Virus record (IMG/VR): IMGVR_UViG_3300028653_000010
Direction: 5' to 3' (one strand)
Length of the DNA stretch: 64,000 nucleotides
Source: a virus
Positions within the stretch are counted from its first letter, which is position 1. Each line of letters begins with the position of its first letter. Below, in pieces: positions 14,661 through 16,932 of the stretch. The notes beneath the pieces are model-generated. The model ran no database searches. It saw nothing but the letters and a program-made list of their open reading frames with translations, and was not told the origin of the DNA. The translations under genes were made by a program, and so were the position numbers.

Positions 14661-15562
14661 ATAAACTCTGGCAGTGTAAAAGGGCGGAATTTAGGTTTCC
14701 CTACTACTTCCTTCAGCAACCTATCGAAGGTATCATGAACCTCACTCGCGTCAATAGGCCTCATATTGACATTTTCATTTAGGCAGAGTCCGAGTAGGTC
14801 CCTTATAGGCTCTGGGACCGAATCCGGATACTCCTTGGTTTTTAGGTCTCCACCAAGTAGTGCTTGAACGCACTTGGCCATCATATAGAGATCGGTACCC
14901 TCCCGCGCGGGCTCCGAGTGAAGGACTTCGGGTGGGTAGAAGTCCTCGTAGGTGGTGACCATTGCCGGAACTTTGATCCTTGTTGGAGTCGAGTAGGACC
15001 AATCGACTATCCGCCCCCCGTGATCTTCCAGGGTGAGTAGGATGTGTGGAGGCAAGATCGCTCCGTGGATAACCTTGTGCTTGTGGGCATACCACATGCC
15101 CACAAGGGACCGCTTGAACATCCAAGCCATGTCCCGATAGTCAATCCCCTTCGGGTAGGCCTTGAGAACAGTATCAAGAGTTACACAACCCTTGATCTCC
15201 TCGAAGATGTGGGCTTGCTTACCATCAACAAGGACTCCGATCCCACCATAACTCGTGGGGTAGTACTTGTGGAAGCTGCTTGGCTCACTGGGGTTTTCAG
15301 GGTGCAGCTGACCAAGTACTGACACGTCCCTCTCAATCAGATCATTGAATTCTCGGTCCTTAGCGATCTTCACCAAAACAGGCTTGGAGTTGTGCCCAGA
15401 CTCTCGATCCATGATGCGCTCGTAGCGGGTTCGAATCTCCTTGTGTTCAACTACCGCGGGTGGATTGGACAACGTCCCCTCAAAGATCTCGCTGATATCT
15501 CCTTCTATGACCTTGGCTCGGATGATCAACTCTCGGCCGTCTCTCAAGTTAATCTGGGTCAT
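14657..15562 (-). CDS. Ser/Thr protein kinase-like protein (probable pseudokinase)
   Basis: VLVKIA; catalytic loop HGAILPPHIL (no Asp/Asn); DWS in place of DFG; YPPE; TDLYMMA. Confidence 0.8.
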   Translation of the reverse strand: MTQINLRDGRELIIRAKVIEGDISEIFEGTLSNPPAVVEHKEIRTRYERIMDRESGHNSKPVLVKIAKDREFNDLIERDVSVLGQLHPENPSEPSSFHKYYPTSYGGIGVLVDGKQAHIFEEIKGCVTLDTVLKAYPKGIDYRDMAWMFKRSLVGMWYAHKHKVIHGAILPPHILLTLEDHGGRIVDWSYSTPTRIKVPAMVTTYEDFYPPEVLHSEPAREGTDLYMMAKCVQALLGGDLKTKEYPDSVPEPIRDLLGLCLNENVNMRPIDASEVHDTFDRLLKEVVGKPKFRPFTLPEFI

Positions 15563-16932
15563 ACTTCACGCTTATCCTCTGCTGTTGGACCAAAACCCCT
15601 GATGAGTACCCGAGATTTGAATACCTTCGATATACAGGCTTCTAGACGTCGTGTGCCACTAAGGGTTGTGTAGACTGGGGATACCGCCGATTGAACAGGC
15701 TCTGCCTCCTCCCCATACTTCTCTGACATGGCCTTGAGCTCGAGATGGAAGTCGTGACTAATCCCAAACCTTATACGGTACGTAGTACTGCCTAGGAAGT
15801 TATGGGCTAAACAAACCTGTTGGGGTCCGCTCACTTGGTCAAGATGATTGATTGCTATTGCATCCACACCATCCATAACAAACTTGGCGTACCTCGCCAT
15901 TATGAAGTCGAAGTAACCTAATCGGAAGGATCCCTGCCACTCCCCATCGACATTGTGGTCCTTGATGTCCAACTCGAGACCCTCAGAAGGTAGTGGTCCC
16001 GCTCCATGACGAGTATGATACGGACGAGTCACTCCAAGTCTGAGGTATTTAGCACCTGAGGTACCTGATATCTGCTTGAGAATCTTGATGGCATTCTCAA
16101 AGGTGCAATTGCTCCAAGTCGTGTGCGGATGAAAACCCCACTCTTCATCAAGCAATGCTCCCTGAGCCCCTTCAAAGATTATAGTGTCATCATCGTTGAA
16201 GACATCCCCAGTATCAATAGGCCTAACAATAGACACCCCTCGTTTCAAGAGCTCGGTTGTATCTTGGATGAAGCGATCTACAACCTCACCGTCTTCTAGG
16301 ATATCGAGATCAACCCCAACCTCACTACCCTTGGGCCAATCACTAACTAGAGTTCTAGCTTCCAAGCAAGCTCTGATCCGTATACCTCTGAGTTTACTGG
16401 CCAACTCATCTAAGTTGTTGAGGTCGCGCATTCGAATAGCCAACTCTGGATCACGGATGGCCCAATCGACTGTCTCACCTATACCCATTCCGCAAGTACC
16501 AAACTCCAACGTGGACTTCACTCGACGCTGAGTCTCTCGAAGGCGGTTGAGAGACACGTGAAAAGGAGTGGTCAGGAGAGAGTTTTGGTCGACGAACATC
16601 CGCTCGAAGGCGTCAGTCACCCCAAGGCTGATCAGGTGATCCCCCTCGGGTAACATGAAGGTAGGGTTCACCAACACATACTTGCTGAGGTAAGTCTTGG
16701 CACCAGCAAAAGTCCCAGAACCCCACTGAGAAAAGCAATGGTGTCTTCCGTCGGCTAGGACAACGTTATGCCCAGCTTGCGCGCCCCCATTGTACCTGAC
16801 GACCACCTTGGACTTGTGCTTACGACACAGGTAGTCGACAATCGAGCCCTTACCCTCATCCCCGAACCCAAGGCCAGCTACCAATACAGCTCTCATCATA
16901 GTTTCTAGGTGGTGGCTGAGATCAGCCACCAC
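15559..16932 (-). CDS. adenylosuccinate synthetase-like protein (divergent PurA paralogue)
   Basis: GDEGKG, RYNGGAQAGHN, EGAQGALLD, TRHGAGPLP. The Asp-binding TTGR loop is absent. Start may be ATG 16899. Confidence 0.85.
   Translation of the reverse strand: MVADLSHHLETMMRAVLVAGLGFGDEGKGSIVDYLCRKHKSKVVVRYNGGAQAGHNVVLADGRHHCFSQWGSGTFAGAKTYLSKYVLVNPTFMLPEGDHLISLGVTDAFERMFVDQNSLLTTPFHVSLNRLRETQRRVKSTLEFGTCGMGIGETVDWAIRDPELAIRMRDLNNLDELASKLRGIRIRACLEARTLVSDWPKGSEVGVDLDILEDGEVVDRFIQDTTELLKRGVSIVRPIDTGDVFNDDDTIIFEGAQGALLDEEWGFHPHTTWSNCTFENAIKILKQISGTSGAKYLRLGVTRPYHTRHGAGPLPSEGLELDIKDHNVDGEWQGSFRLGYFDFIMARYAKFVMDGVDAIAINHLDQVSGPQQVCLAHNFLGSTTYRIRFGISHDFHLELKAMSEKYGEEAEPVQSAVSPVYTTLSGTRRLEACISKVFKSRVLIRGFGPTAEDKREV

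Follow-up and report, generated by a model that had tools for sequence, protein, structure and literature searches.

A PurA-like protein family with a replaced aspartate loop, encoded beside a vWA protein in phages and bacteria

Genomic locus

The stretch of DNA analysed here, 64,000 nucleotides of the IMG/VR virus record IMGVR_UViG_3300028653_000010 (hereafter the window), is phage DNA and encodes a DNA polymerase, a DnaB-like helicase and a deoxynucleoside monophosphate (dNMP) kinase. Near-identical DNA was not found in sequenced phages. We describe a gene on its minus strand coding for a homologue of the adenylosuccinate synthetase PurA, in which the catalytic residues are kept and the aspartate-binding loop is replaced by another conserved loop. 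The gene stands between those of a von Willebrand factor A (vWA) protein and a kinase-fold protein, and the three are flanked by genes related to NAD metabolism (Table 1).

The PurA-like gene and its product

The open reading frame (ORF) that the original prediction had described as a PurA paralogue is real. The motifs GFGDEGKG (Asp25) and QAGH (His55) are intact, FEGAQG (Gln257) is present too, and the TKLD motif of PurA reads NHLD (residues 362-365), as had been proposed. An AAGGAGG sequence directly abuts the annotated GTG start. The homologues all start at the position of M12/M13, and the true start may instead be an ATG at 16899 or 16896.

The protein matches PF00709 with 190.6 bits (cut-off 27), over profile positions 2-341 only, and phrog_1211 (PHROG 1211) over its full length with 243 bits. 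It falls far under the cut-offs of all NCBIfam PurA equivalog models, of which NF002223 scored best (159.5 bits, cut-off 402); TIGR00184 gave 138.1 bits (cut-off 395.55). The PurZ model NF038379 gave 38.7 bits, with a cut-off of 300. An AlphaFold2 model of the enzyme has a mean predicted local distance difference test (pLDDT) score of 84.6. In Foldseek searches the model matched PurA structures with template modelling (TM) scores of 0.72-0.83 and E values of 1e-27 to 1e-29, and PurZ and PurZ0 with TM scores of only 0.5-0.57. Confidence in the model is lowest in the IMP loop (141-150) and in the replaced loop (311-340); the value of about 68 in the latter is what would be expected of a mobile active-site loop.

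The earlier statement that the protein is not PurZ is borne out by its catalytic Asp, by the score against the PurZ model and by a fold that is nearer to PurA than to PurZ or PurZ0. A Ser replaces the catalytic Asp in all 147 of 147 phage PurZ sequences (PMC12884076). The partners expected in a Z cluster (datZ/mazZ or dutZ/dmtZ) were not found among the 20 window proteins scanned. With the defence-system models of PADLOC, neither the enzyme nor the vWA protein gave a match, and the kinase-fold protein gave weak matches only.

Replacement of the aspartate site

Residues were compared between 131 members of the family and 19 housekeeping PurA proteins, a narrow set of mostly Alphaproteobacteria together with E. 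coli. E. coli numbering is used unless the window protein is named. The roles given to PurA residues are partly those known from E. coli PurA.

HMMER alignments with solved PurA structures and MAFFT alignments that included E. coli PurA both place HNVDGEWQGSFRLGYFD opposite NEFGATTGRRRRTGWLD. The original prediction held that the aspartate-binding loop had been lost. The canonical loop is gone, and HNVDGEWQGSFRLGYFD lies exactly at 15957-15907, but the loop is not simply lost; a conserved HNxxGxWQGxFRxGxxD motif is found instead. In this motif H326, N327, W332, Q333, F336, R337, G339 and D342 (window protein) are invariant or nearly so across the family. Judged from the alignments, the change of loop is a trait of the whole family and not a chance or private change.

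The catalytic residues Asp13, Lys16, His41 and Gln224 are kept in 99-100% of the members and correspond to D25, K28, H55 and Q257 of the window protein. In the aspartate site, R303 is a gap in 100% of the members, T301 is Gln in 96%, T300 is Trp, Phe or Tyr, R305 is Phe in 74% and R131 is Met, Val or Leu; R306 is kept in 100%. Of the 116 columns that are invariant in the housekeeping proteins, the family keeps 47; in 19 it has switched to another conserved residue, and the other 50 are relaxed. The kept columns include D13, K16, H41, Q224, T239, R272, R306 and D333. Among the switched columns are N38Q (100%), I126H (95%), T129C (96%), S240W (91%), V273H (100%), T301Q (96%) and the deletion of R303 (100%), and the relaxed columns include K18, R131, K140, R143, D231, R305 and R419. 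Of the ligands of the 5'-phosphate of inosine monophosphate (IMP), T239 is kept, N38 and T129 are switched as above, and R143, contributed by the partner subunit, is not conserved; V273H adds to these changes on the ribose/phosphate side of the IMP site. Gln52, Cys147, His309 and Trp332-Gln333 of the window protein are new invariant residues predicted to line the pocket.

Read from the counts of kept, switched and relaxed columns, the phosphotransfer machinery and the purine-base pocket, in which Gln and the backbone hold a 6-oxopurine, are conserved, the aspartate site is lost with all of its carboxylate-binding side chains, and the ribose/phosphate side is partly rebuilt. The active-site pocket of the family is under purifying selection. 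In PurA, R303 touches both aspartate and the 2'-oxygen of IMP (PMC8342488). The PDB title of the E. coli R303L mutant names GDP and 6-phosphoryl-IMP, and does not name hadacidin. Judged from this title, the first half-reaction can survive the loss of R303.

According to the original prediction, the enzyme still phosphorylates an IMP-like nucleotide and transfers it to an amine other than aspartate. This was found to hold in part. The residues of the base pocket and of phosphotransfer fit an IMP-like acceptor and the aspartate ligands are gone, whereas with an altered ribose/phosphate site (N38Q, T129C, V273H, R143) the acceptor may no longer be IMP. It is very unlikely that the family uses L-aspartate, because the Arg and Thr ligands of the aspartate site have all been lost by deletion or replacement throughout the family.

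Four bacterial genomes that encode the paralogue were checked for a separate PurA. In Actinomadura, Leptolinea and Variovorax a canonical PurA (542-612 bits) occurs beside the paralogue (182-242 bits), and in the fourth, a 1.3-Mb Saccharibacteria metagenome-assembled genome (MAG), the paralogue is the sole PurA homologue. We did not find a homologue of the adenylosuccinate lyase PurB in the window, and only 1 of about 240 fetched loci has one.

Distribution of the family

A word-indexed protein search gave 4495 matches with E values below 1e-10, the closest of them on contigs of up to several hundred kb. In IMG/VR at least 545 stretches match the PurA-like enzyme. Among sequenced phages, about 200 of Mycobacterium cluster C1 (Bixzunavirus) encode the nearest relatives, at 39-43% identity; Rhizobium and Vibrio phages come next. 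In genomes, members of the family are found in many actinomycetes, Anaerolineae (Chloroflexi), Planctomycetota, Verrucomicrobiota, Variovorax and at least one member of the Candidate Phyla Radiation (CPR; Saccharibacteria).

The relatives in Vibrio phage pv27 (locus L241:4034-5146) and in RefSeq Bixzunavirus genomes (e.g. L001:5989-7317) are labelled "2-aminooxy adenylosuccinate synthetase", which is the PurZ label of PHROG 1211. In these relatives the catalytic Asp is present, the aspartate loop is missing and the vWA partner is encoded upstream, so the label looks like a misannotation. A 2026 phylogeny in Nucleic Acids Research of 481 phage PF00709 homologues assigned 147 to PurZ and a handful to the clade of E. 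coli PurA; the rest were not discussed. We found no paper on the pair of enzyme and vWA protein or on this combination of genes.

No natural fusion that would reveal a partner of the enzyme was found. The sole longer protein, P0124 (1453 residues, from a Myxococcales MAG), combines an N-terminal PurA-like domain, in which the family loop reads NRENRWQGRFRLGWLD, with about 1000 further residues that include a Big_5 Ig-like domain. A vWA part is absent; the protein is uninformative as to the partner and may be a gene-call fusion.

The vWA partner and the 62-residue peptide

The gene upstream of the PurA-like gene encodes a vWA protein with a metal ion-dependent adhesion site (MIDAS). Pfam gave no match for this protein, and phrog_2971 matches it at 1e-48. 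Its AlphaFold2 model (pLDDT 93) matches the integrin beta I-like and SpaC vWA domains with a probability of 1.00. Invariant in the vWA family are M1 and G2, the MIDAS residues D73-x-T75-G-S77 (DVTGS), D113 and D183.

The pairing of the two genes is near-constant. Starting from the enzyme, an adjoining vWA gene on the same strand was found in 78 of 81 viral loci, and in the three misses the enzyme lies at a contig end. The reverse scan, from the vWA gene to the enzyme, found the pair in 76 of 77 further viral loci, the lone miss being cut at a contig end. The pairing extends to distant members in the cultured Rhizobium phage RHph_TM30 and in Vibrio phage pv27. Among the bacterial loci of the enzyme, 56 of 62 have the vWA gene. 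Three bacterial loci without an adjoining vWA gene were followed up; one of the genomes has a vWA gene elsewhere, and in two none was detectable.

Of 176 distinct vWA partners, 154 start with Met-Gly and several others with Gly after a GTG or TTG start. The N-terminal motif is nearly always Met-Gly-[GSY]-[GS]-x-[WYF]-[SD], and 85 of the 176 end in Arg-Leu. In the window, a gene for a 62-residue peptide lies directly upstream of the vWA gene, and its product copies the vWA N-terminus. Comparable peptide genes (59-63 residues), homologous or similarly placed and with this N-terminus, directly precede the vWA gene in the nearest clade (loci L005-L008) and in no other. Apart from the vWA gene and the peptide, no ORF of at least 30 residues in the window has an N-terminal motif of the vWA type.

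Neighbouring genes

Table 1. Features of the PurA-like locus in the window (all positions refer to the 64,000-nucleotide stretch)
Feature	Position	Strand	Description
NMNAT/NaMNAT-like protein	13521..14660	minus	379 residues; C-terminal nucleotidyltransferase domain (GSFTVPHFGH); PF01467 21.2 bits
Kinase-fold protein	14657..15562	minus	Start overlaps the stop of the PurA-like gene by 4 bases
PurA-like GTP-dependent ligase (predicted)	15559..16932	minus	457 residues; GTG start
Replacement substrate loop	15907..15957	minus	HNVDGEWQGSFRLGYFD, where PurA has the aspartate loop GATTGRRRRTGW
vWA/MIDAS protein	16945..17910	minus	321 residues; starts MGGGSWS, ends RRL; near-constant partner
62-residue peptide	17929..18117	minus	N-terminus MGSMGYSREYY copies the vWA N-terminus
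NadV/NAMPT nicotinamide phosphoribosyltransferase	18121..19527	minus	NF006629 513 bits (cut-off 405); PF04095 and PF18127
NrtR-like Nudix and winged-helix protein	19537..20361	minus	Likely start ATG at 20331; Nudix box glutamates intact

The gene downstream of the PurA-like gene encodes a protein with a kinase fold (Pkinase 32.2 bits; phrog_3043). In an alignment of 68 members of its family, HGA stands for HRD and DW for DFG; the catalytic Asp is missing, and the VAIK-type Lys65 and the metal-binding Asp are kept. The conserved residues are K65, H166-G-A, D187-W and D224. Of the viral loci, 65 of 81 in the first scan and 38 of 77 in the reverse scan have this gene with the pair, as do 46 of 62 bacterial loci, and a hidden Markov model search showed that it is truly absent from many loci. 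Pfam detected no J-domain in the kinase-fold protein Sebata gp260. The kinase-fold partner in Leptolinea (L083:3901-4920) starts with a PriA-type zinc ribbon, PF18319, and thus the N-terminal extension of the protein differs between lineages. Residues 44-53 of the window protein (15404-15433) read RTRYERIMDR and the C-terminus of the 62-residue peptide (17932-17952) reads DRYHRPWVI; both resemble TRY(E/S)RI.

The NMNAT-like protein has a weak match to Bacillus subtilis NadD (1kam) over the HxGH motif. Its gene occurs in 4 of 81 viral loci, each time after the kinase-like gene. The NrtR-like protein matches PF00293 (67.7 bits) and the winged-helix domain PF21906 (NrtR_WHD, 83.3 bits), and scores 168 bits (cut-off 400) with the equivalog model of NrtR, an ADP-ribose-responsive repressor. 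NAMPT and Nudix genes lie beside the module in about 11% of the viral loci, the window included. In the bacteria, a gene coding for a Nudix domain and an NrtR-type winged helix is present in 40 of 62 loci, and the usual order is Nudix, kinase, vWA, enzyme.

Two TTCTCAnnnTGAGAA palindromes, with a spacing of 16 bp, are located just upstream of the Nudix gene in about 33 loci from actinomycetes. Examples of these double sites in high-GC actinomycetes are L085:2948-2978, L089:3000-3030 and L099:2937-2967. The double site is probably the operator of the regulator formed by the Nudix and winged helix-turn-helix (wHTH) domains. A second TTCTCAnnnTGAGAA pair was seen in locus L102, directly upstream of the vWA gene. 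Neither inverted repeats nor an operator of the actinomycete type were found upstream of the Nudix gene in the window.

We found no conserved neighbours other than the vWA, kinase-fold, Nudix and NAMPT genes when viral loci were compared all against all and bacterial loci were searched by tblastn with reference ORFs; the remaining large neighbour clusters are antisense shadow ORFs. In Actinomadura, the genes flanking the module are not phage genes. In Rhizobium phage RHph_TM30 (L240:1-1248), genes for a phosphoribosyltransferase-like protein and a bifunctional NMNAT/Nudix protein lie about 3-5 kb upstream of the pair, making it a second cultured phage in which the vWA and PurA-like genes are near NAD genes. 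Further away in the window, a 456-residue protein is encoded on the minus strand (21663-23033), with an N-terminal dNMP kinase (PF21448, phrog_139) and a C-terminal part like HNH/endonuclease VII (phrog_1035, phrog_3322). It looks like a fusion, or a kinase with an inserted domain of the homing-endonuclease kind.

Two publications on NARP, one on NARP1/2 and one on NARP3, do not contain the terms adenylosuccinate, PurA or vWA. Among the NrtR-regulated genes listed by Rodionov et al. (2008) are the uncharacterised nrtX-nrtY of Streptomyces, Frankia, Kineococcus, Proteus and Hahella, which may be the pair of enzyme and vWA protein.

Possible function of the PurA-like enzyme

We suggest that the protein belongs to the PurA superfamily as an active GTP-dependent ligase whose specificity has changed; it would use an amine other than aspartate, the favoured candidate being the N-terminal glycine of the vWA protein. 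We would put the probability of this reading at roughly 0.4. In wider terms, the data support an active ligase that has kept GTP and probably a 6-oxopurine nucleotide as substrates, has given up aspartate and works with the vWA protein.

In brief, GTP would phosphorylate O6 of an IMP-like purine nucleotide, and a non-acidic amine would attack the activated C6. This amine would preferably be the alpha-amine of the glycine with which the vWA protein starts once Met is removed, and in the clade of the window possibly also that of the 62-residue peptide. The product would be a protein-N6-purine-nucleotide conjugate. The kinase-fold protein could act as a non-catalytic nucleotide-binding or adaptor subunit, and the module would respond to, or serve, NAD+/ADP-ribose metabolism by way of the NrtR-like Nudix-wHTH regulator and the NAMPT/NMNAT neighbours.

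The vWA glycine is favoured because the two genes are paired, the vWA N-terminus is invariant, the arginines of the aspartate site are swapped for aromatic or hydrophobic residues, and neither a lyase nor another small-molecule enzyme belongs to the module. The pairing, the Met-Gly N-terminus and the peptide with the same N-terminus are circumstantial points that fit a peptide or protein amine, which the original prediction had put forward as a possibility. In its most specific form, the proposal is that the enzyme joins a GTP-activated purine C6 to the N-terminal glycine of the vWA protein, and here also of the 62-residue peptide, in an ADP-ribose/NAD-responsive module of large phages, actinomycetes and CPR bacteria. 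We consider this full version rather unlikely, but if it were true, such an "N-terminal purinylation" would add a new kind to the known post-translational modifications of proteins.

Several observations weigh against the proposed ligation to the vWA protein. We know of no precedent for an enzyme of the PurA family acting on a protein. The ribose/phosphate site is altered (N38Q, T129C, V273H, R143), and therefore the phosphoryl acceptor may not be IMP. The two genomes without a detectable vWA partner, a Saccharibacteria MAG and a Vitreoscilla MAG, encode enzymes with a loop that is identical in kind; incompleteness of the MAGs or sequence divergence could explain this. In the AlphaFold2 model of the vWA protein, residues 8-33 form ordered helices and the first ten residues have a mean pLDDT of 83; a free tail at the N-terminus is therefore not evident. 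Mutual information with average product correction between the vWA N-terminus and the loops of the enzyme (140 pairs, effective number of sequences 99) gave no interpretable signal, and the top pairs look clade-driven. Finally, the link to NAD is drawn from gene neighbourhood, with NAMPT near only about 11% of the viral loci.

The same C6 chemistry could also be carried out with a small non-acidic nucleophile such as ammonia, glycine or another amine, or another oxygen could be activated, for example the 1''-OH of ADP-ribose, to be displaced by nicotinamide; in either case the vWA and kinase-fold proteins would serve as regulators or scaffolds and not as substrates. This is a genuine, if doubtful, possibility. 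A pocket that has lost basic residues and gained aromatic ones and His would suit a neutral or aromatic small nucleophile, the enzyme occurs in two genomes with no detectable vWA partner, and the connection to the NrtR-like regulator and NAD salvage suggests a role at the level of metabolites. The Saccharibacteria paralogue, as sole PurA homologue, could even mean a one-step conversion of IMP to AMP without PurB. Such a reaction leaves the near-constant adjacency of the vWA gene and the invariant vWA N-terminus unexplained, however, and the module has no further conserved small-molecule enzyme; the retained purine-base pocket argues specifically against a ribose acceptor. The protein could also be a pseudo-enzyme, a non-catalytic switch that binds GTP or a purine nucleotide and through which the vWA and kinase-fold proteins are controlled, as in NTPase-vWA pairs such as MoxR and its vWA partner. 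Proteins with a vWA domain are commonly paired with P-loop NTPases, conservation is lacking at R143 and D231 of the homodimer, and the partner kinase fold lacks its catalytic Asp. We regard this as improbable, since catalytic Asp, Lys, His and Gln conserved at 99-100% and new pocket residues that are invariant are typical of an enzyme with a defined substrate and not of a decaying site.

Two readings that stay closer to the annotation have very little in their favour. The PF00709 domain, the catalytic residues and the database name adenylosuccinate synthase would suit an ordinary adenylosuccinate synthetase with divergent aspartate binding, carried as an auxiliary metabolic gene that raises the supply of AMP. 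We consider this highly improbable: R303 is deleted in 131 of 131 members and T301, R305 and R131 are replaced, the PurA equivalog score is 159 bits against 402, three of the four host genomes checked have a separate canonical PurA, and a PurB homologue is present in 1 of about 240 loci. Equally remote is a PurZ-like role, in which the enzyme would produce a modified deoxypurine nucleotide destined for the DNA of the phage itself, as the PHROG and RefSeq label of the relatives would imply. Loss of R303, and with it of the contact to the 2'-oxygen, could favour deoxynucleotides, and a dNMP kinase and a DNA methylase are encoded nearby. Against this stand a catalytic residue that is Asp and not Ser, the score of 38.7 bits against 300 with the PurZ model, the absence of the PurZ aspartate loop tip, and the occurrence of the same module in bacterial chromosomes, among non-phage genes and under the Nudix-wHTH regulator; the vWA partner is also left unexplained. 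Ligation to a non-aspartate amine, with the vWA glycine favoured, is the explanation that we prefer.

Comparison with known systems

The phage NAD+ reconstitution pathway NARP2 (NAMPT and NMNAT) and the NrtR regulons resemble the locus in that the module of the window lies between genes for an NrtR-like Nudix-wHTH protein and NAMPT on one side and an NMNAT-like gene on the other; RHph_TM30 is similar. They differ in that NAMPT is found beside the module in only about a tenth of the viral loci (the 11% given above) and in that NAD is connected to it here through gene neighbourhood.

In the pairs formed by MoxR and vWA proteins, by BchI and BchD of Mg-chelatase and by NorQ and NorD, the gene of a P-loop NTPase is likewise tightly coupled to that of a MIDAS-vWA protein. 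The likeness is tentative; the NTPase there is an AAA+ ring ATPase, whereas here it has a PurA fold with an intact small-molecule active site.

With PurA (EC 6.3.4.4; PF00709; E. coli structures 1ADE and 1CG0) the enzyme shares the full-length fold, the GDxGKG P-loop with the catalytic Asp and Lys, the catalytic His, the FEGAQG motif with the base-binding Gln, Thr239, Arg306 and the guanine-specifying Asp of xxLD. It differs in that the aspartate site is gone (R303 deleted, T301Q, R305F, R131M), in N38Q, T129C, V273H and S240W, in the lack of conservation of the dimer and phosphate residue R143, and in having His for K331. Moreover, its scores lie far under the equivalog cut-offs, three of the four genomes checked encode a canonical PurA as well, and it has a vWA protein as partner.

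To our knowledge, PurZ is the only characterised paralogue family of the textbook enzyme PurA, and it revealed a whole new DNA chemistry. PurZ and PurZ0, of the 2-aminoadenine pathway in Z-genome phages (NF038379; 6FM1, 7ODX, 7VF6), are also phage-borne PurA paralogues with a changed choice of substrate. PurZ has Ser at the position of the catalytic Asp and the aspartate-contacting loop tip (PMC8342488, PMC12884076), whereas the enzyme described here keeps the Asp and is without the loop. The family can be seen as a third, large branch beside PurA and PurZ, and identification of its product would either establish an undescribed ligation of a nucleotide to an amine, perhaps on a protein, or supply a missing step in the struggle over NAD+ and ADP-ribose between phages and the NADase defences of bacteria.

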